Part shown: piece by piece, positions 6,026-19,897 of the stretch
Numbering within the stretch: position 1 is the first letter of the stretch
How the letters are laid out: every line of letters begins with the position of its first letter
Program-made: the position numbers and the translations under genes
NCBI GenBank assembly: GCA_050485485.1
Contig: JBJHBM010000001.1
Coordinates: forward strand, 114,916 to 178,915
Source of the DNA: Alphaproteobacteria bacterium
GTDB taxonomy: Bacteria; Pseudomonadota; Alphaproteobacteria; SMXQ01
DNA length: 64,000 bases
Direction: 5' to 3'
The notes under the pieces: model-generated
What the model was told of the DNA's origin: nothing
Database searches by the model: none
Seen by the model: only the letters and a program-made list of their open reading frames with translations

Positions 6026-6186
6026 GGGCCGATTTTATCTCAAGTCTTTGATCCGATTTGGATTTGGTGCCTTGCCCGGGGCGTCGGGGCCGGTTATCGT
6101 TCCGGTGGAGGCATAACAAGAAAGCCCAAGATATAGCTTCAACAGGGATGGCGGCAAACAGGGCGCCATCCATCCAACGGGAGATA

Positions 6187-7476
6187 ATGATGACGATTCG
6201 CTACAGTTTCGCCGCGCTGGCGGCCGGCGTCCTTGCCGCGGGCTTCCTGATGGCGCCGGCGCCGGCCGCGGCCGACCCCGTGGCCGACTTCTACAAGGGC
6301 AAGCGGATGGAGATGCTGATCGGCTACTCCTCCGGCGGCGGCTACGACACCTACGCGCGCGTGGTCGCGCGCCACTGGCCGCGCCTGATCCCCGCCCAGC
6401 CCACCATGACGCCGCGCAACGTGCCGGGCGCGGGTTCGATGCGGCTGATGAACGAGATGTACAACACCCGGCCCAAGGACGGCACCGCAGTCGCGACCGT
6501 CAGCCGCGGCATCGTCCACGAGGAGTTGTGGGGCAACCAGGGCGTCCAGTTTAGGGCCAACGAGATGCACTGGATCGGCAGCGCCAATAACGAGGTGAGC
6601 GTGTGTGCGTTCTGGAAGACCGCGCCCGCCGCCACCGTCAACGACCTGCTCAACAACGAGCTGGTGGTGGGCGGCACCGGGCCGGGCGCCGACACCGACG
6701 CCTTTCCGCAGGTGATGAACAACGTGTTCGGCAGCAAGCTCAAGCTGGTGACTGGCTACCCCGGCGGCAACGACATCAACTTCGCGATCGAGCGCGGCGA
6801 GGTCCAGGGACGTTGCGGCTGGTCGTGGTCGTCGGTGGTGGCCACGCGCGCCCAGTGGCTGAAGAACAAGGACATCCTGATCCCGATCCAGATGGCGCTG
6901 ACCAAGCACGCGGACCTGGCGGACGTGCCGCTGGTGATGGACCTCGCGCGCAACGAGCGCGAGAAGCAGCTTCTGACCCTGGTGTTCGCGCGCCAGACCA
7001 TGGGGCGTCCGTTCCTCACCACCGATCAAGTGCCGGCCGAGCGCGTCGCGATGCTGCGCAAGACCTTCATGCAGCTGATGGAGGACAAGCAGTTCCTGGC
7101 GGAAACCGAGAAGGCGCGCCTCGAGATCACCCCGGTTTCGGGTGAGGAGGTCCAGCAGCTCGTCTCCAGTCTGTTCCAGTTCCCGAAGGACGTGATCGAA
7201 GCCTCCAGGCTCGCCGCCAGCGACGCCGCACGCACCCAGGTGGTGAAGGCGGTGGTGCCGGAGGTGACGGTGACGGCGCGGGTCGCAGCCGTGCAGCGCG
7301 GCGGCGAGCGTGTCCAGTGGCAAGGCGACACCGCCAAGGGCCGCGTCAACCTCGACGGCAAGACCGAGGTGACCGTCGCCGGCAACAAGGCTACGGGCGC
7401 CGACCTGAAGGAAGGCATGACCTGCGACTTCAAGATTCTCGGCGTAGAGACGGCGCTGGCGATCGCCTGCAAGTAA
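6187..7476 (+). CDS. Bug/TctC-family solute-binding protein with an extra ~65-aa C-terminal domain ending ...GMTCDFKILGVETALAIACK
   Basis: ATG 6187 after GGGAG. Signal peptide, then ADFYKGKRMEMLIGYSSGGGYDTYARVVARHW...PGAGS. 430 aa versus ~325 aa for a canonical TctC. The C-terminal domain is homologous to the two small stand-alone proteins at 16622..17462 and to the tail of the TctC at 15031..16275. Confidence 0.8.
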   Translation: MMTIRYSFAALAAGVLAAGFLMAPAPAAADPVADFYKGKRMEMLIGYSSGGGYDTYARVVARHWPRLIPAQPTMTPRNVPGAGSMRLMNEMYNTRPKDGTAVATVSRGIVHEELWGNQGVQFRANEMHWIGSANNEVSVCAFWKTAPAATVNDLLNNELVVGGTGPGADTDAFPQVMNNVFGSKLKLVTGYPGGNDINFAIERGEVQGRCGWSWSSVVATRAQWLKNKDILIPIQMALTKHADLADVPLVMDLARNEREKQLLTLVFARQTMGRPFLTTDQVPAERVAMLRKTFMQLMEDKQFLAETEKARLEITPVSGEEVQQLVSSLFQFPKDVIEASRLAASDAARTQVVKAVVPEVTVTARVAAVQRGGERVQWQGDTAKGRVNLDGKTEVTVAGNKATGADLKEGMTCDFKILGVETALAIACK

Positions 7477-12737: not shown

Positions 12738-13808
12738 TCAGGGATGCTCGATCTGGGTGAACCACTCGGTCGGCAGTTCGCGACCGAGGCCGGCCTCGCG
12801 CGCCTTGCGGTAGGCAAGGCCGCCGACCACGGTGAATTGATAGCCGATGCCGGAATAGTTGAGGAAGCAGGTGGCCTCGCGGTCGTTCGTCCGGCCGGCC
12901 ACCCGGCCGGTGACGAGGTCGGCAAGCTCGGCCATGGATTTCTCGTCCAGGCACGCGTCGGGGGCATGGACGCCCTTGCGATCCTCGGCGAGCTCGACTC
13001 CCTGGGTGCGCACCACGAGGGGCGCGTTGTCGCGCAGATGCACGGCGCGGCGCGCGCAGGCCGCGACCGCCTCGGGCGCGATCTCGGCCGGCTTGATGGA
13101 CGAATAATGCACGCCCTCCCGCACATGGTTGTGGCCGATCACGGGATCGAGGGCATTGGTGGCGCAGGCGACGATATCGGCGTCGCGGACCACCGCTTCG
13201 ACGCTCGCCGCCGCGGCGACCTCGATCCCGAGCCGTGCCGTCATGTCGCGGGCGAAGGCGGCGCGATGGGCGGGGTTGGGGCTGTAGCACACCAGCCTTT
13301 CGAGCGGCCGTACGGCGGCCATCGCCATTGCCTGCGCGCCGGCCTGCCAGCCCGAGCCGATCACCGCCGCCACCCGGGCGTCGGCGCGCGCCATGTGGCG
13401 GGCCGCGATGCCGTTGGTGGCGCCGACCCGCATCCGCTGGACCACGCCGTCCGGGAAGATCGCGAGCGGCTCGCCGTTCTCCGTGGAGAACAGCAGCACG
13501 AGCCCGACGTAGCGTCCGCCGGGCGCGGCCGGCACCTTCTCGCGCCGGGTCGAGCCCGCGACCTCGCGCCAGCCGATGATGTCGGAATTGAGCCGGATGG
13601 AGGCGAATCCCGACGGCGCATGGACGCCGTCCATGCTCTTGAGGGCGTAGACGGTGCCCGGATCGCGGGCGGGGGCGACGATCTCGGCCCGGCCCCGATT
13701 GCCCCCGCGTCCTTCGGCGAGATCGCGGTAGCCCTCCTCGAGAACGGCGATACACTCCGGCATGGCGAGCACGCGGTCGAGCTCGTCGTTGCTGAATATC
13801 CAGGTCAT
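12738..13808 (-). CDS. Ornithine cyclodeaminase / mu-crystallin family protein (paralog 2)
   Basis: 356 aa. MTWIFSNDELDRVLAMPECIAVLEEGY... with a Rossmann-type VIGSGWQAGAQ motif. About 50% identical to the upstream paralog. Confidence 0.85.
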   Translation of the reverse strand: MTWIFSNDELDRVLAMPECIAVLEEGYRDLAEGRGGNRGRAEIVAPARDPGTVYALKSMDGVHAPSGFASIRLNSDIIGWREVAGSTRREKVPAAPGGRYVGLVLLFSTENGEPLAIFPDGVVQRMRVGATNGIAARHMARADARVAAVIGSGWQAGAQAMAMAAVRPLERLVCYSPNPAHRAAFARDMTARLGIEVAAAASVEAVVRDADIVACATNALDPVIGHNHVREGVHYSSIKPAEIAPEAVAACARRAVHLRDNAPLVVRTQGVELAEDRKGVHAPDACLDEKSMAELADLVTGRVAGRTNDREATCFLNYSGIGYQFTVVGGLAYRKAREAGLGRELPTEWFTQIEHP

Positions 13809-13832
13809 GGAAGTTCCCGCCTGTAGGGACGC

Positions 13833-14909
13833 CTACGGATGCACCGTCTCGGTGAACCAGTCGGTGGGCAAGGCGTGGCCGATGCCGCGTTCGACCGCGC
13901 GCTTGTAGATGACCGAGCCAGCCGCCGCGAACTGGTAGCCGAGGCCGAGGTTGTTCAGGAAGCAGGTGACCTCGTCCTGGCCGCCGCGGCCTTGGGCGCG
14001 GCCGACGATCAGGTCGGGCAGGGTGGGAAATTTCCCGAAATCGAGCTTGTTGGCGGCATTCCAGCCCTTTTCCTTGCTCTCCTCCTGGAACGGCGCACCC
14101 TCGGCCACCACGATGATGGGCGCGGTATCATGGGTGTGCACCGCCACCCGGTTGGCGGCGAGGATCGCGGCCGGCTCGACCTCCGGCTTCTTGATGGAGG
14201 AGACGTGCATTCCCGGTGCGATCCACTCCTTGAAGAATACCGGGTCGATGGAATTGGTACCGCACATGGCGACGTCGGCGCCGCGCACCGCTTCTTCGGG
14301 ATGGGCGACCGGACGGATGTCGACGCCGACCACCTCGCTCATGCGGACGGCGAAAGCCTCGCGGTTGTCCTTGTTGGGGGAGAATACCCGGATTTCCTCG
14401 AAGTCGCGCACTGCGCAGGCCGCGGTGAGCTGCGTCTCCGCCTGCCAGCCCGAGCCGAGCAGCCCGAGCACGCGCGAATCCTCGCGCGCCATGTACTTGA
14501 CGCCGAGCCCGTTGGTGGCGCCAACGCGGATATGCTGCAGCACGCCGTCCGGGAAGATCGCGAGCGGCTCGCCGTTGGCGGTCGAGAACAGCAGCACCAG
14601 CCCGACGTAGCGGTCGCCGGGCGCCGCCGGCACCTTCACGCGGCGCTGGGCGTTGCCGATCACCGGGTTGGTAACGATGTCGGAGTTGATGCGGATCGCG
14701 CCGACGCCGAGCGCCGGCACCACCCCGTCCATCGACTTGAGACCGTAGATCGCATCGGGCGCATAGGAGGTGGGGGCGATGCAGTCGGAGCGCTGGCGCG
14801 TGATGCCGCGCCCGTGGGCCAACTCCTTGTAGGCCTCCTCCAGCGCTGCGATGCAGTCCGGCATGGTGAGCAGGGTTTCGACGTCGTCGTTGGACAGGAT
14901 CAGGGTCAT
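13833..14909 (-). CDS. Ornithine cyclodeaminase / mu-crystallin family protein (paralog 1)
   Basis: 358 aa. MTLILSNDDVETLLTMPDCIAALEEAY... RBS GGAGG. Lies 24 nt upstream of paralog 2. Confidence 0.85.
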   Translation of the reverse strand: MTLILSNDDVETLLTMPDCIAALEEAYKELAHGRGITRQRSDCIAPTSYAPDAIYGLKSMDGVVPALGVGAIRINSDIVTNPVIGNAQRRVKVPAAPGDRYVGLVLLFSTANGEPLAIFPDGVLQHIRVGATNGLGVKYMAREDSRVLGLLGSGWQAETQLTAACAVRDFEEIRVFSPNKDNREAFAVRMSEVVGVDIRPVAHPEEAVRGADVAMCGTNSIDPVFFKEWIAPGMHVSSIKKPEVEPAAILAANRVAVHTHDTAPIIVVAEGAPFQEESKEKGWNAANKLDFGKFPTLPDLIVGRAQGRGGQDEVTCFLNNLGLGYQFAAAGSVIYKRAVERGIGHALPTDWFTETVHP

Positions 14910-15030: not shown

Positions 15031-16275
15031 TTACTTGCAATCGATGGTGACGGGCTCGTTGTCGCCGCCCGGCTTGTAGTCGATCTCGCACGCCATGCCC
15101 GCCTTGAGGGCCTCCCGGGCTCCGGGCTTGCCGCCGATGGTGATCTTGGTGCGCGCGGCCGAGATCTTGGACTTGACGTCGTTGGCGCCGTGCTTGAAGG
15201 CGATCTCCCGCCCGTCCGGCGACACGGCGGACAGGGCGGTGGCCACCTTGCTGGCGGGCGGCACGATATTCAGGATATCCGCGACCATGGCGACGATTTC
15301 CGGCGGCTGGTCAAGGGCCTCGCGCACTTTGCGCGCGAGCTCTTCGCCGTAGAGCGGGTCGACCGGCCGGTCGGCCTTGATCGCCTGGGCCTGCAGCTCG
15401 GAGTCTTCCATCGCCTTGCGATAGGCCTCGACGAGGGTTTTGGCGCGGTCGGCCGGAATGCCCGGAGGGCCGGCCGTGAAGCGTGCGATCTCTGCCTGGG
15501 AGCCGACCAGCGCGACCACCGCCTTGGCGTTGCGCTCGGTCACGATCTCGGAAAGCAGCGGTACGCCCGGGGCCGCCTTGCCGCCGATCTGGGCGATGTA
15601 GCGGCCGTAGCCGTTCTTCACGAACAGCTCGGCCGAGGACTGGGAGCCGACGGAGGCGTCGATCTCGCCCCGGCGCATGGCCAGCTCCGCGTCGGTGCCG
15701 TCGTAGCCAAGGATCAGCTTCATGTTCCAGCCGAGCACCTTGGACAGCATCATGGTGTCGTTGTAGGCTGAAGAGCCGACGCCCGCCGAGGCAAAGCGGA
15801 CGGGCGCCCTGGCCGTCCTGAGGTCGTCGAGGGTCTTGAGGTCGGTCTGCGCCGCGGCCATGATGACGCGCGGGTCGCTCGCGGCCTTGCCGATCCAGGT
15901 CATCTTGGCGAGGTCGAAGCGCACGCCCTGGCGCCCCAGAAGCTGGGAGAAGATCAGCCCGGTGTTGAAGGTGCCGATGGTCTCGCCGTCGGGCTTCGCG
16001 GCATAGAGCAGGTTGGCGCCGATGATATGGCCGGCACCCGGCACGTTGCGCACGACGAAGGTCGAGCCGGGCAGGTGGTTCTGCATGTATCTGGCCACCA
16101 GGCGGCCGTAGAAGTCGTAGCCGCCGCCCGCCGCCGTTGCCACCACGTAGGTGACGTTCTTGCCCTTGTAGTAGTCGGCACCGTCGGCCGCTGCGGCCGC
16201 GCCCGCGAGCAGGGTAGCCCCGGCGGCGACCGCCGCGCCCAGGCGGAGGCTTCTCGTAAGTTTCGGTGTCATGGG
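15031..16275 (-). CDS. Bug/TctC-family solute-binding protein with the C-terminal small domain (...ALKAGMACEIDYKPGGDNEPVTIDCK)
   Basis: ATG 16275 after AAAGGA. Signal peptide MTPKLTRSLRLGAAVAAGATLLAGAAAA. ADYYKGKNVTYVVATAAGGGYDFYGRLVARYM...PGAGH. 415 aa. Confidence 0.8.
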   Translation of the reverse strand, partial: PMTPKLTRSLRLGAAVAAGATLLAGAAAAADGADYYKGKNVTYVVATAAGGGYDFYGRLVARYMQNHLPGSTFVVRNVPGAGHIIGANLLYAAKPDGETIGTFNTGLIFSQLLGRQGVRFDLAKMTWIGKAASDPRVIMAAAQTDLKTLDDLRTARAPVRFASAGVGSSAYNDTMMLSKVLGWNMKLILGYDGTDAELAMRRGEIDASVGSQSSAELFVKNGYGRYIAQIGGKAAPGVPLLSEIVTERNAKAVVALVGSQAEIARFTAGPPGIPADRAKTLVEAYRKAMEDSELQAQAIKADRPVDPLYGEELARKVREALDQPPEIVAMVADILNIVPPASKVATALSAVSPDGREIAFKHGANDVKSKISAARTKITIGGKPGAREALKAGMACEIDYKPGGDNEPVTIDCK

Positions 16276-16569
16276 ACATGTCCTTTCAAGAGAGGACCGG
16301 ATTCCGTCGGGCCCGGATGGCGCAGGAGCGAAGCGGTGGCTTCTGGGCCGCACCATAGGCTACGCAAACTCGGTACGAGACGTGGCCGGCGGGTAGCAGG
16401 AAAGCATGCGAAGCGATGAGACGGTCCTCGGGGCTTCGCGCCTCCCGATCACAGTCGCCTTCGCCGTAGATGTTGGTAGGCGCAGGCAAAAAGGCAAGAA
16501 CCACCCCCGGGATGGTGATGCTTCGGCTGCGGCACGCCCCGGGGACGGATTCGAAACGTCTCGCGGGTA

Positions 16570-16601
16570 CGAAAAGGGGCGGGCCCGCAAGAGCCCGCCC
16601 C
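16570..16601 (-). terminator. Rho-independent terminator (minus strand) after small secreted protein 1
   Basis: Minus-strand sense reads GGGGCGGGCTCTTGCGGGCCCGCCCC followed by TTTTC. Confidence 0.65.
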
Positions 16602-16621
16602 CCAACGACGGCTATGCCGCG

Positions 16622-16879
16622 TTACTTGCAGGAGACCGTGGTGGCCTTGCCGCCATCGCCCTGCACGTCGCAGGTCATGCCGTCCTGAAGCTGGTCGCGC
16701 TTGGCGGCCTGGCCCTTGATGGTGACCTGGGTGCCGGAGTTGGAGATGGCGAACTCCTGGCCGCCGACGCTGATCTGGCGGCCTTCGTTCATGACCTGAA
16801 TCTTGCCCGACGCGGCATGGGCGCTCGCGATCAGGCCGACGGCGAACACGGACGTGAGAAGAGCACTGGTGATCTTCAT
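16622..16879 (-). CDS. Small secreted protein 1 (85 aa precursor) carrying the stand-alone GMxC...CK-COOH domain
   Basis: ATG 16879 after AAAGGA. Signal peptide MKITSALLTSVFAVGLIASAHA. Mature ~63 aa: ...TQVTIKGQAAKRDQLQDGMTCDVQGDGGKATTVSCK. Confidence 0.7.
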   Translation of the reverse strand: MKITSALLTSVFAVGLIASAHAASGKIQVMNEGRQISVGGQEFAISNSGTQVTIKGQAAKRDQLQDGMTCDVQGDGGKATTVSCK

Positions 16880-17036
16880 TTGATAATCCTTTCGAGACCC
16901 CACTCCCGACGGTGGACGACCTCCCGTGATGGGAAGGGGTGAGATCGTTTCATTTGTGAAGGTGCCGGGCCCTTGCGGGCGAGGCCTCCCGCCGGTACGC
17001 ATCTCCTTCTGATTTGTGCGTGCCCGGTCGTGAAGG

Positions 17037-17065
17037 ATATTGCGCCACTTTTTCGTTATTCGCAA
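17037..17065 (-). promoter_or_regulatory. Sigma70-like promoter for small protein 1 (TTGCGA-N17-CAATAT, minus-strand sense), giving a ~150-nt leader
   Basis: Read from the sequence. The same architecture, with the downstream leader sequence conserved, is found upstream of small protein 2. Confidence 0.55.
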
Positions 17066-17154
17066 GTAGCTCGAGTCATAGAACAATTATGTAAAACAGT
17101 AAGTTAAGATTATTACTTCAAGCGATTTGTCATAATATGTCTGGCGCCTATCGC

Positions 17155-17187
17155 AGAAAAAAAGAGGCGGGCCGTAAGGCCCGCCTC
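17155..17187 (-). terminator. Rho-independent terminator (minus strand) after small secreted protein 2
   Basis: Minus-strand sense reads GAGGCGGGCCTTACGGCCCGCCTC followed by TTTTTTTCT. Confidence 0.75.
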
Positions 17188-17207
17188 TCCACATCGGAAA
17201 TCCGATG

Positions 17208-17462
17208 TTACTTGCAGGCGATCGCGCTGGCCTCGCCCTCGCCGGTGATCTGGCAGTCCATGCCGGACTTCAGGTCGCCGCGGCCGGCGGGATTGCCGCC
17301 GATGGTGATCTGGGTACGCGATGCGGACACGGTGTAGGTCTTGCCGCCCGCTACAACCTCGCGGCCTTCATTCTTGACCTCGATCTTGGCCGCCATGGCG
17401 CCGCTCGACACCAGCATGGCCGCGGCGAAAACCGAAGATACAAGAGCAGTGGAAATCTTCAT
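17208..17462 (-). CDS. Small secreted protein 2 (84 aa precursor), paralog of small protein 1
   Basis: ATG 17462 after AAAGGA. Signal peptide MKISTALVSSVFAAAMLVSSGAMA. ...RTQITIGGNPAGRGDLKSGMDCQITGEGEASAIACK. Confidence 0.7.
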   Translation of the reverse strand: MKISTALVSSVFAAAMLVSSGAMAAKIEVKNEGREVVAGGKTYTVSASRTQITIGGNPAGRGDLKSGMDCQITGEGEASAIACK

Positions 17463-17594
17463 TTTGGTCGTCCTTTTGAAGCCCCTGCCCAGGGCAGGGG
17501 GACAGTTTTGGAGCATGTAGGCTCAGGCCTTTGCGAGGCTCGGCCTCCCCCCGGGCGTTTGCCGTTTTTGATTATCGGGCGCCCGGTCGGTGAG

Positions 17595-17623
17595 ATATTG
17601 CGCCTTCTCCAAGCCCTCCGCAA
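17595..17623 (-). promoter_or_regulatory. Sigma70-like promoter for small protein 2 (TTGCGG-N17-CAATAT, minus-strand sense)
   Basis: Read from the sequence. It is paralogous to the promoter at 17037..17065, and the first ~35 nt of the leader are conserved (CACGACCGGGC...AATCA). Confidence 0.55.
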
Positions 17624-17757
17624 GCGGGATTATGGGAATGCCGAAAGCCTTAACATACCGTTTTACAGGGACTTTTTTGGACGCCCCTGGGAACTTATGG
17701 GAAGGTGCCGGCCCGGCCAGCGCCTCTCTCGGACATCGCCGGCCCGGCCGGCCTGTT

Positions 17758-18399
17758 TCAATCCGGCCGCAGCCAGGTATCGACCACATAGGTGGTCACG
17801 AACCCCTCGAACAGGATCTGCTGCAGCAGGACGGAGATGATGCCGTACATCACGACCCATGACCCGGCGGTGAGGATCGCCGCGAGCTTCCAGCTCTCGC
17901 GCGCATAGTAGCGCAGGAACGCGAGCATGAAGATCGGGTAGCCGAGCCAGAAGCCGAACAGCAGCACGAGCCCGATCAGGGAGAAGAAGTAGCCGAACAG
18001 CAGCGCCTCGCGCTTGTTGCGGCTGCGCGCGGTCGTGCTCGGGTCCTCCACCAGGGTCTGGAGCTGCGTGCCTTCGGCGACGTCCATGCGGACCTTGCCT
18101 CCGGTGCGCTCCATGATCTCGGCCATGTAGCGCTCGAAGCTGGTGCGCGGGTCGATCTTGCCGCCCTGCTTGTGGTAGTTGTGCACGTCGAGCACGAGCT
18201 GGAGCAGGGTGAGTCCCATGCCCGGTATGCCGATCACGTAGGGCAGGAAGTTGGCGGGCCAGGAATAGCCGTGGGCGATCAGCACCATGCCCGCGAAGAT
18301 GGCGAACATGAGCATGGTAAAGAGCGTGCGTCCGTGAAGCAGGGCCTGCAGCACGGTGGGCTTACGCTCCGCGCCGTCGGTGCGGGGATCAGATGACAT
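17758..18399 (-). CDS. TctB-like small 4-TM subunit of the tripartite tricarboxylate transporter, encoded downstream of tctA
   Basis: ATG 18399 after AAGGAG, overlapping the tctA stop (ATGTCATCTGA). Hydrophobic 4-TM protein. Homologous to the C-terminal domain of the fused TctAB (RESWKL...). Confidence 0.7.
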   Translation of the reverse strand: MSSDPRTDGAERKPTVLQALLHGRTLFTMLMFAIFAGMVLIAHGYSWPANFLPYVIGIPGMGLTLLQLVLDVHNYHKQGGKIDPRTSFERYMAEIMERTGGKVRMDVAEGTQLQTLVEDPSTTARSRNKREALLFGYFFSLIGLVLLFGFWLGYPIFMLAFLRYYARESWKLAAILTAGSWVVMYGIISVLLQQILFEGFVTTYVVDTWLRPD

Positions 18400-19897
18400 G
18401 GCCGAGCTCCTTCTGGCTGTCCCTGTAGCCGCGGAAGATTGCATAGGCGATGGTGACCGAGATTAGCCCCATCAGGACGAGCGAAAGCGGGCGGGCGAAG
18501 AAGTCCCAGCCCCACAGCGCCCAGGCCTTGTGGAGCGAATCCTCGGCGATCGAGCCGAGCACGATGCCGATGGCGAAGGGCGGGCGCGGCCAGTCGTACT
18601 TGAGAAGGCCGTAGCCGATCACGCTCAGGATCGCGAGCAGGACCAGGTTCTCCCACTGGCCCTTGGCCAGCAGCACGCCGAACACCACCACCACCAGCAC
18701 GAACGGGATCATGATGCCGCCGCGCAGGAAGGTGAGGAACGCCACCCAGCGGGTGATGAACAGCAGGATGATGACGGCGATGATGTTGGAGATCACCAGC
18801 GCCCAGATCAGGATCCACACGAGGTCGAGCTGCTGGGTCAGCATCATCGGTCCGGGCTGGATGCCGAGGATCAGGAACGCGCCGAGCAGGATCGCCATGC
18901 CGGAGGAGCCGGGCACGCCGAAGAACAGGGTGGGGAGCAGCGAGCCGCCCTCCTTGGAGTTGGTGGCCGATTCCGGCGCGATTACGCCGCGCACGTCGCC
19001 CTTGCCGAAGGTCTCCGGGTTGCGGCAGCTTTGGACCGCGTGGCCGTAGCAGATCCACGCCGCCGCCGAGCCGCCGAGGCCCGGCAGGATGCCGATGAAC
19101 GCCCCGATCATGGAGCACCGGAACATCAGCCACATGTGGCGGAAGGTCTCCATCATGCCCTTCCACTGGGCCCGCACGCCGGTATCGGCCATGTCGCGGG
19201 AGATTGCCGAGATCGCGCCGCCCTTGACCCCGAGGTGGATCATCTCCGGCACCGCGAACAGCGCGAGGACCGCGGTGATCAGGTCGACGCCGTCCCACAG
19301 GAACAGGAAATCTCCCGAGTAGCGCGCGATGCCGGTCTGTGGGTCCATGCCGACGAATGCCAGCATCATGCCGTAGAGGCCCACCACGATGCCCTTGAAG
19401 ATGGCAGAGCCCGACACGAAGGCGACGAAGGTGATGCCGAGCAGGGCGAGGAAGAAGAATTCGGCGGGCGAGAACTTGAGCACGATCGGCTCAATCACGG
19501 GGATCAGCACCGCCAGCACCGCGGCGCCGAGGATGCCCCCTATGCCTGAGGCCATCAGGCTCGCGCCGAGCGCCATGCCTGCCTGGCCCTTCTGCGCCAG
19601 CGGGTAGCCGTCGACGATGGTGGCGGCGTCGTCGCCGGTGCCCGGCACCCCGAACATGATCGACGATATCTGCCCCGCCGTCCCGGTGACGGCGTGCATG
19701 GACAGCAGGAACACCGCGCCCGCGATCATTTCCTGTCCGAACACAAACGGGATCATTATCGCGATCGCAAGTCTTCCGCCGAGTCCGGGCACGGCCCCGA
19801 AGAAGATGCCGATACAGGTGCCGAAGATCATCATCCACAGCACGTACGGCGATGTCATCAAATGCACGAGCGTGCCAAAGATCACATCTATGGACAT
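18389..19897 (-). CDS. TctA large permease subunit of the tripartite tricarboxylate transporter
   Basis: 502 aa with GVPGTGDDAATIVDGYPLAQKGQAG, ETFGKGDVRGVIAPES and GGSLLPTLFFGVPGSSGMAILLGAF. The family's internal duplicated structure is present. Confidence 0.9.
   Translation of the reverse strand: MSIDVIFGTLVHLMTSPYVLWMMIFGTCIGIFFGAVPGLGGRLAIAIMIPFVFGQEMIAGAVFLLSMHAVTGTAGQISSIMFGVPGTGDDAATIVDGYPLAQKGQAGMALGASLMASGIGGILGAAVLAVLIPVIEPIVLKFSPAEFFFLALLGITFVAFVSGSAIFKGIVVGLYGMMLAFVGMDPQTGIARYSGDFLFLWDGVDLITAVLALFAVPEMIHLGVKGGAISAISRDMADTGVRAQWKGMMETFRHMWLMFRCSMIGAFIGILPGLGGSAAAWICYGHAVQSCRNPETFGKGDVRGVIAPESATNSKEGGSLLPTLFFGVPGSSGMAILLGAFLILGIQPGPMMLTQQLDLVWILIWALVISNIIAVIILLFITRWVAFLTFLRGGIMIPFVLVVVVFGVLLAKGQWENLVLLAILSVIGYGLLKYDWPRPPFAIGIVLGSIAEDSLHKAWALWGWDFFARPLSLVLMGLISVTIAYAIFRGYRDSQKELGHVI

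Follow-up and report, generated by a model that had tools for sequence, protein, structure and literature searches.

The leader of the Escherichia coli ompA messenger RNA (mRNA) is 133 nt long and consists of a 5′-terminal hairpin (hp1), a single-stranded Hfq-binding segment, and a second hairpin (hp2) by the ribosome-binding site. ROSE-type thermometers of Rhizobiales are leaders of about 100 nt that contain several hairpins and are located upstream of small heat-shock genes. Here, we describe the leaders of two small-protein genes, termed g1 and g2, in a stretch of 64,000 nucleotides from an Alphaproteobacteria bacterium (GenBank assembly GCA_050485485.1, contig JBJHBM010000001.1, positions 114,916 to 178,915 of the forward strand). 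This whole stretch is referred to as the window, and positions are counted from its first letter. Both leaders carry a module composed of a helix at the predicted 5′ end (P1), a Shine-Dalgarno (SD)-like GGGAGG, and a hairpin (P2). The P1-GGGAGG-P2 module is a structured 5′ untranslated region (UTR) absent from RNA catalogues, and we judge it highly probable that the promoter at this locus is genuine and that the leader RNA is conserved and structured.

Three described systems are particularly close in their components. In one account, the 5′-terminal stem of the ompA and papA leaders is the classical shield against 5′-end-dependent decay by RNase E (PMC3997798); the ompA 5′ UTR and 5′-terminal base pairing are credited there to Arnold et al. 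1998 and Bouvet & Belasco 1992. The 129-nt leader of cry3A in Bacillus thuringiensis contains an SD-like sequence close to its 5′ end, the STAB-SD, to which the 30S subunit binds and which stops RNase J1 (PMC4113751). In Alphaproteobacteria, the small RNA (sRNA) AbcR1 acts on SD-like sites outside the initiation regions of mRNAs for periplasmic binding proteins (PMC4152367).

The present leaders resemble the ompA leader in several respects. They are about 125–150 nt long; a stem starts at most a few nt from the 5′ end, as predicted here; part of the leader is single-stranded and A-rich; another hairpin precedes the open ribosome-binding site by a few nt; and the gene is monocistronic and encodes an abundant exported protein. 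They differ from it in that no sequence or Rfam relationship exists, the A-rich segment is here the loop of the 5′ stem, an extra invariant GGGAGG is present, the host is alphaproteobacterial, and stabilisation is here a prediction. As in STAB-SD, an invariant, perfect SD core, GGAGG, occurs near the 5′ end, separated from the start codon of the gene by about 100 nt and with no start codon directly after it, whereas here the distance from the predicted 5′ end to the motif is about 40 nt, P2 pairing takes up part of the motif, and binding of the motif by 30S is putative. Like the targets of AbcR1/2, the genes encode periplasmic proteins tied to solute uptake, with an SD-like G-rich motif outside the initiation region and an A-rich putative Hfq site; unlike those targets, they belong to a tripartite tricarboxylate transporter (TTT) system rather than an ATP-binding cassette (ABC) system, and the motif is far upstream in the leader. 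Like ROSE, the leaders are long 5′ UTRs with several hairpins behind an alphaproteobacterial promoter of the housekeeping type, but Rfam gave no ROSE match, and the last hairpin excludes the ribosome-binding site, which is predicted to be open.

Promoters of g1 and g2

The two genes encode paralogous proteins with 45% amino acid identity.

16879..16622, minus strand: g1, encoding a secreted small beta-barrel protein of 85 amino acids that belongs to an uncharacterised family
17462..17208, minus strand: g2, the paralogue of g1, encoding 84 amino acids

The first-pass annotation of the window had proposed a duplicated promoter, TTGCG[A/G]-N17-CAATAT, and this was confirmed as CTTGCG-N18-CAATAT, exact at 17066..17037 and 17624..17595. 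The two copies are the only mismatch-free occurrences in the 64 kb, and GGCGCAATATC, the conserved −10 context, is likewise confined within the window to the g1 and g2 promoters.

17060..17065, minus strand: −35 hexamer of g1, TTGCGA, with an invariant C in front at 17066
17037..17042, minus strand: −10 hexamer of g1, CAATAT, within the conserved GGCGCAATATC
17031, minus strand: predicted transcription start of g1, the A of CA located 6 nt past the −10, with a conserved placement relative to P1
17618..17623, minus strand: −35 hexamer of g2, TTGCGG
17595..17600, minus strand: −10 hexamer of g2, CAATAT

Nine leaders from several lineages, designated b-type below, keep CTTG and GCA..AT at constant spacing around a spacer of varying sequence, and the upstream region of the related locus L042 contains the same motif. 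The alphaproteobacterial consensus reported by MacLellan and colleagues in 2006 is said to be CTTGAC-N17-CTATAT. Compared with this sequence, the window promoters match at 4/4 positions of CTTG and 5/6 of the −10. The sigma factor may be of the housekeeping type. A sigma-54 reading of the conserved TTGC was also considered and rejected, because the GG element expected 10–11 nt upstream (−24) is absent.

Counted from the transcription starts, which are predicted from the sequence, the g1 leader comprises about 152 nt (17031..16880) and the g2 leader about 126 nt (17588..17463). The first value agrees with the earlier estimate of about 150 nt, and the second is shorter than the value of about 135 nt given for g2. 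Both leaders are GC-rich, as had been noted, with a GC content of 0.62–0.63.

Conservation of the leaders between g1 and g2

A conserved block in the start region, TCAC(C)GACCGGGC[A/G]C ... [A/T]AATCA[G/A]AA, was found downstream of both promoters as described in the annotation. The best local alignment of the g1 and g2 upstream regions begins at the −10 and covers about 80 nt beyond it, and its score of 28 is far above the 10.7 ± 1.6 obtained with dinucleotide shuffles (z = 10.8). The identity between g1 and g2 was 73% in the promoter, 70% from the −10 to the end of P2, and 70% in the coding sequence (CDS). The 3′ half of the leader and the DNA upstream of the −35 showed 47% and 46% identity, respectively, corresponding to the background. 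Conservation of the leader beyond the promoter thus holds for its 5′ part of about 80 nt and not for its 3′ half. Since this non-coding block is as conserved as the diverged CDS and lies beside DNA of background identity, selection has apparently acted on the 5′ leader.

The 15-mer GGGCC(C)GGCACCTTC, which had been regarded as shared by the two leaders, was rejected as a common leader element because the g2 copy precedes the promoter.

16971..16958, minus strand: g1 copy of the 15-mer, equal to the 3′ strand of hairpin P2
17714..17701, minus strand: second copy, GGGCCGGCACCTTC, located 77 nt upstream of the g2 −35 and outside the leader

The g1 and g2 copies are hence not colinear, and similar strings are present elsewhere in the window. 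The block that is really common to both leaders, which the annotation did not name, is CCGG[C/G]GGGAGGCC..GCC.CGCAA[G/A]GGCC.

Structure of the P1-GGGAGG-P2 module

The components of the module and the remaining elements of the two leaders are as follows.

17030..16990, minus strand: helix P1 of g1, CG-A-CCGG (17030..17024) paired with CCGGCG (16995..16990)
16990..16985, minus strand: SD-like GGGAGG of g1 at the P1/P2 junction
16989..16958, minus strand: hairpin P2 of g1, GGAG/CUUC, GCC/GGC, and GCCC-GCAA-GGGC with a GNRA loop
16940..16897, minus strand: distal GC-rich hairpin region of g1, ACCCCUUCCC ... GGGAG-U-GGGGU with two more CGGGAG copies
16893..16887, minus strand: ribosome-binding site of g1, GAAAGGA, predicted to be 55% unpaired
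17586..17551, minus strand: helix P1 of g2, CCGGGCG (17586..17580) paired with CGCCCGG (17557..17551), with the A-rich loop CCCGAUAAUCAAAAACGGCAAA
17549..17519, minus strand: GGGAGG of g2 (17549..17544) together with hairpin P2, outer helix AGGC/GCCU and inner hairpin GCCU-CGCAA-AGGC
17500..17482, minus strand: 8-bp hairpin of g2, CCCCUGCC-CUG-GGCAGGGG, 6 nt upstream of the ribosome-binding site and with no U-run after it

In six leaders, P1 begins 7–9 nt past the −10, which places it at roughly +1 to +3 if transcription starts where predicted, and closes an A-rich loop of 21–30 nt. In g1, this loop consists of 28 nt (17023..16996) and holds an inner ACGCA/UGCGU stem. GGGAGGC is invariant in the six leaders and, with about 7 contiguous unpaired or junction nt, is the only such stretch; in g1 and g2, no AUG, GUG, or UUG is located 4–12 nt downstream of GGGAGG. 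P2 in the conserved module has AGGC/GCCU as its outer helix. Inside it, g1 and L001 have GCCC-GNRA-GGGC and g2 has GCCU-CGCAA-AGGC as helix and loop, and the inner helix is GGUCC/GGGCC in L003 and L023 and GGCC/GGCC in L022. The distal hairpin region of g1 is kept in L001 and not in g2. Across the window lineage, the ribosome-binding site is predicted to be 55–79% unpaired.

Structure prediction on the leaders and their orthologues, the check suggested in the annotation, yielded two helices in which pairing is kept through double changes and G·U pairs. Single-sequence folds showed the same P1/P2 architecture in g1, L001, L003, and L022; those of g2 and L042 agreed on P1 and not on P2. RNAalifold analysis of an unsupervised alignment recovered P1 with AU, GC, and UG variants, as well as the inner stem of P2. 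When six sequences were aligned by hand on the structure, 98.9% of the cells were paired (gaps treated as N), and double changes were found in 7 of the 19 pairs, a number equalled in none of 500 shuffles. In a slide control on the same alignment, in which the partner columns were shifted, pairing was 31–57%. G·U pairs appeared on the sense strand only, with U·G in L001, L003, L023, and L042. As a sense U·G would be A·C on the opposite strand, the selected molecule is probably RNA and not DNA. A covariance model of the module, R1, detected only the two leaders in the 64 kb and had no match in L046.

Leader classes in related loci

The gene order tctA-tctB-small genes-tctC, with the additional domain on tctC, recurs in L003, L004/L015, L005, L022, and L033. 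L023 and L042 contain the tctB-small-gene portion on contigs ending short of tctC, and some family members are located outside the tct arrangement. The regions upstream of every small gene were extracted from the fetched loci and compared. The b-type leaders are those of g1, g2, L001, L003+3627, L023+1786, and L022+3147, to which L004+3001, L005+3556, and L033+2501 are added as a variant class. They share one order of elements: an AT-rich tract, CTTGC[GA] and (C)GCAATAT or GCACCAT at fixed spacing, CG.CCGG, an A-rich stretch, CCGG.GGGAGGC, a GC hairpin, a variable 3′ half, and the ribosome-binding site GAAAGGAC.

Several orthologous loci retain the leader, whose loss there had been named as a possible refutation: the module recurs in L001, L003, L023, L022, and partly in L042, which has the promoter and first helix of the b-type leaders. 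The proteins encoded behind it in these relatives are 39–77% identical to that of g1. The variant class represented by L004 could be fitted to P1/P2 by hand with further compensatory changes (ACCGCC/GGCGGU and GGAU-CGGC/GCCG-AUCU), is not recovered by the covariance model, and has about 7 unpaired nt ahead of P1.

A second group, termed a-type, consists of unrelated leaders of about 150 nt that precede the first small gene of related loci (L003 2852-3003, L023 1011-1162, L004 2282-2431, L005 2833-2982, and L033 1778-1927). Their RNAalifold consensus is covarying and contains 36 pairs, 10 of which show double changes, with a 5′-terminal helix and a GGGAACAAGGNCC hairpin; they also carry an AACAAG loop. 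The a-type leader is a second uncatalogued leader motif. Leader length was measured for 15 leaders from both families; 13 of them span 147–161 nt, and the exceptions were g2 (126 nt) and L032 (131 nt).

Comparison with known regulatory classes

The annotation had suggested an Rfam search and proposed for the leader a cis-regulatory RNA, such as an attenuator, riboswitch, or sRNA target, or else a protein operator. The leaders match no described family: cmscan at E <= 10 on positions 15500-19000 gave chance matches only, none of which was on the leader strand inside the leaders, and the gathering score was not attained by any family, either across the window or in 7 related loci. The covarying helices on the sense strand favour the general suggestion of a cis-regulatory RNA. 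The attenuator, the ROSE-type thermometer, and the classical riboswitch are disfavoured because no conserved upstream open reading frame (uORF), U-run hairpin, Rfam match, or sequestered ribosome-binding site was found. Neither a conserved uORF nor a hairpin with a U-run behind it is present in the leaders, and the terminator scan located no terminator-like site in either leader. For a riboswitch, one short invariant junction and a mostly open ribosome-binding site were seen. A ROSE or other RNA thermometer finds no support: the ribosome-binding site lies 4–12 nt past the last hairpin and is predicted to be open, and Rfam gave no ROSE match for the leaders.

A leader peptide or an N-terminal extension starting from the in-frame upstream ATGs (16622..17086 and 17208..17516) was also rejected, as these are not conserved. 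The upstream AUGs differ in position and frame, and L001 lacks them and breaks the frame, with indels of 1 nt and an in-frame stop when compared with g1. The signal peptide begins at MKI and not at the upstream in-frame ATGs.

Proposed function and alternative explanations

The g1 and g2 units are the product of a tandem duplication. We propose that each unit would consist of an AT-rich tract, an alphaproteobacterial promoter of the housekeeping type, a folded 5′ UTR with a length of about 125–150 nt, a gene for a secreted protein of about 85 amino acids, and a terminator, and that after the duplication selection would have kept the promoter and the 5′ part of the leader of about 80 nt. In this proposal, the module would act after transcription. 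The 5′-terminal stem P1 would shield the 5′ end from 5′-end-dependent RNase attack as hp1 does in ompA, GGGAGG and the A-rich loop may be docking sites for the 30S subunit, similar to STAB-SD, and/or for Hfq, and the ribosome-binding site GAAAGGA would remain open. The expected outcome is a stable, well-translated mRNA whose level could be tuned in trans. A generic role in stability or translation is favoured over a specific ligand because the unrelated a-type leaders also open with a covarying 5′-terminal helix. The putative stabilising or docking function is ranked ahead of a pure sRNA target; the two are not exclusive. Taken as a whole, from the autonomous units to the stabilising and docking mechanism, this proposal is tentative and could fail in one of its parts slightly more readily than hold in all of them.

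Several observations weigh against it. The covariation sample comprises six sequences from three independent lineages in an alignment hand-fitted to the structure. Since no variation is seen in the outer P2 helix (AGGC/GCCU), it may be conserved as sequence and not as a helix. Folding energies were mildly below those of shuffles (z −1.3 to −2.0), and the covariance model R1 misses both the L004/L005/L033 class and L042. The location of P1 at the 5′ end hinges on the predicted transcription start, and a scan with the E. coli promoter consensus, which is uninformative for this taxon, gave 0 sites, TTGCGA-N17-CAATAT matching at 7/12 positions. The L025 leader is short (about 55 nt) and lacks P1-P2, which indicates that the module is dispensable for some family members. 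Finally, STAB-SD is documented in Gram-positive bacteria and not in Alphaproteobacteria.

The leader may instead be mainly a platform for Hfq and a trans-acting sRNA, an account that we regard as possible but rather unlikely. In this case, Hfq would contact the A-rich (ARN)n loop of P1 through its distal face, and GGGAGG(C) would pair with a CU-rich anti-SD sRNA of the AbcR/NfeR type that co-regulates g1, g2, and the TctC-like gene downstream. Consistent with this, the A fraction of the P1 loops was 0.31–0.67, compared with 0.154 window-wide, and the loops contain runs of 2–6 ARN triplets; AACAAG or AACAAA recurs in a-type, b-type, and tctC-type leaders. However, A-richness and ARN runs are of low specificity. 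GGGAGGC is, besides its invariance in the six leaders, present in the tctC leaders of the window and L001, and single-stranded anti-SD motifs of AbcR1 are known to bind SD-like sites outside initiation regions (PMC4152367). Against this, GGGAGG is located about 100 nt from the start codon and is half paired in P2, and GGGAGGC is not enriched in the window, where 16 copies were observed and 22.7 expected; what is notable is its placement in three consecutive leaders. Moreover, neither a cognate sRNA nor an Rfam sRNA family was found in the window.

It is improbable that P1-GGGAGG-P2 is a new aptamer, either a riboswitch or a protein-binding element, that senses a metabolite linked to the TTT system and ornithine cyclodeaminase and controls translation. 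The conserved two-helix module with an invariant purine junction, its absence from Rfam, and the conserved transporter and catabolic neighbourhood fit such an element, but the invariant unpaired or junction nt amount to only about 7 contiguous positions, the loops vary freely, and no terminator-type expression platform accompanies the open ribosome-binding site. The P2 strand GGUCC of L003 and L023 could alternatively pair with GGACC of the ribosome-binding site; this pairing is not kept in the window lineage or in L022. The absence of the module from L025 also argues against an aptamer.

Still less probable is that no selected function exists, the likeness of the leaders being left from tandem duplication or gene conversion and the helices being generic to GC-rich sequence. 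The weak thermodynamic z-scores, the small sample, and the hand-fitted alignment are compatible with this explanation, but the promoter and 5′ leader remain at the CDS level between genes whose proteins are 45% identical and whose adjacent non-coding DNA is at background, and the same module recurs with the same order and spacing in L001, L003/L023, L022, and partly L042.

The least probable explanation is that the block past the −10 acts as DNA, through a repressor or activator operator or through initial-transcribed-region effects: it abuts the promoter, its CCGG...CCGG is palindromic, AGGC/GCCU and GGGAGG are kept as sequence, and the AT-rich tract upstream, with a recurrent TTATGTAAA inverted repeat, resembles a protein site, but the helix positions show compensatory substitutions amid sequence drift, the U·G pairs of L001, L003, L023, and L042 would correspond to mismatched A·C on the opposite strand, and the spacing of the half-sites, namely the loop length, varies from 21 to 30 nt. 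The protein operator suggested for the leader in the annotation is thus disfavoured by the strand-specific covariation.

If correct, the stabilising and docking proposal adds an uncatalogued structured 5′ UTR motif of uncultured Alphaproteobacteria, with a simple and testable layout of 5′-terminal stem, A-rich loop, SD-like box, and hairpin, and draws notice to the controlled genes, a secreted family of about 85 amino acids encoded between tctB and tctC and also fused to TctC-like proteins. The promoter and leader could serve as a strong expression cassette in high-GC Alphaproteobacteria. A broader interpretation, which is speculative and unlikely, is that P1-GGGAGG-P2 is one of at least two unrelated, covarying leader families forming a dedicated post-transcriptional layer, either a cis-regulatory RNA class not described before or an sRNA/Hfq regulon in common, over a family of small periplasmic beta-barrel proteins from TTT operons; with an RNA switch of their own, these proteins would be an unrecognised TTT accessory. 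None of these findings overturns current understanding; the element is a modest candidate for a regulatory or stabilising RNA.

Upstream DNA of the promoters

The AT-rich tract noted in the annotation was confirmed, with a GC content of 0.34 at 17050-17149 compared with about 0.65 around it. It takes in the promoter itself and extends to the g2 terminator.

17067..17150, minus strand: AT-rich tract from the g2 terminator to the g1 −35, GC 0.36, a candidate UP element or regulator site
17086-17096 (ATTATGTAAAA) and 17126-17136 (TTTGTCATAAT): imperfect inverted repeat within the g1 AT-rich tract
L004 2779, L005 3330, and L033 2278: exact copies of TTATGTAAA in relatives
L003 2790: copy of TTATGTAAA with one mismatch, upstream of the a-type gene

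As an exact match, the 9-mer TTATGTAAA is present at one place in the window. The related loci retrieved for comparison, about 237 kb with the duplicate contigs L015, L034, and L035 counted in, contain exact copies solely at b-type genes of the distant L004/L005/L033 clade, each about 25 nt ahead of the −35. On the basis of its sequence, the inverted repeat with TTATGTAAA is a candidate site for a regulator protein, and a protein operator is possible for the AT-rich tract in which it lies.

Separately, CTGAAAT or CTGAATT was observed about 39–41 nt upstream of the −35 CTTG of four b-type promoters (L001 ~167, L003 ~3402, L023 ~1561, and L022 ~2909). Near the equivalent positions, the window has ACTGTTTTA in g1 and CCTGTAAAA in g2.

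Leader of the TctC-like gene

The TctC-like gene downstream of g1 also has a promoter-like sequence and a long leader.

16498..16273, minus strand: upstream region of the TctC-like gene, with a promoter-like CTTGCC-N17-CAACAT (16498..16470) and a leader of about 190 nt

This leader contains GGGAGGC at 16446..16440 and the same ribosome-binding site GAAAGGAC, with which a nearby GGUCCU could pair. In L001, GGGAGGC is present in the tctC leader too, and GGGGGGAGGC is located upstream of its tctC.

Small-protein family and genomic context

The proteins of g1 and g2 have a Sec-type signal peptide and start with MKI[TS]... at their N-termini. The family, which is rare and unannotated, is characterised by a mature all-beta domain of about 65 amino acids with two conserved Cys residues and the motif GR..v.GGk.y.vSGSRTKvtI.Gk.a.R..iK.GM.C. 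Single-sequence searches for relatives of g1 and g2 returned almost nothing; a profile search identified 242 cluster representatives at E < 1e-3 and an alignment-based search 235 proteins. The matches named by taxon were all from alphaproteobacterial metagenome-assembled genomes (MAGs), and most matches were unnamed. For the small proteins, Pfam and NCBIfam gave sub-threshold matches only, with none at the curated cut-off, and an exact-sequence look-up returned no names. The AlphaFold model (predicted local distance difference test, pLDDT, 77) had weak OB-like or PilY2 matches with E about 0.01. The same domain forms the C-terminal 70 or so amino acids of two TctC-like proteins in the window, 15031-16356 (minus strand) and 6058-7476 (plus strand), and of many elsewhere. 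Judging from these sequences, the domain may be an accessory module of TTT transporters; a literature search on TctC C-terminal domains found nothing relevant.

Genes and terminators around g1 and g2 are listed below.

19897..18389 and 18444..17758: tctA and tctB, respectively, flanking one side of g1-g2
16356..15031, minus strand: TctC-like gene flanking the other side, with a likely true start at 16272
17190..17161, minus strand: strong intrinsic terminator of g2, a 13-bp stem with a U7 run
About 16603..16572, minus strand: terminator-like hairpin of g1 read from the sequence, GGGGCGGGC-UCUUGC-GGGCCCGCCCC followed by UUUU

Because an intrinsic terminator closes g2, the two genes are separate transcription units. 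The terminator-like hairpin of g1 is under the U-run threshold of the terminator scan. No tRNA genes are present across the window.

Between the tctB stop (17760..17758) and the g2 promoter, a 12-nt direct repeat, GGCCGGGCCGGC, occurs on the minus strand at 17738-17749 and 17707-17718, 31 nt apart, the second copy overlapping the 15-mer discussed above. Downstream of the TctC-like gene are two ornithine cyclodeaminase/mu-crystallin genes (12738-14909, minus strand), and the same neighbour is found in L033 (4674-5270); these neighbours hint at the substrate class of this TTT system.

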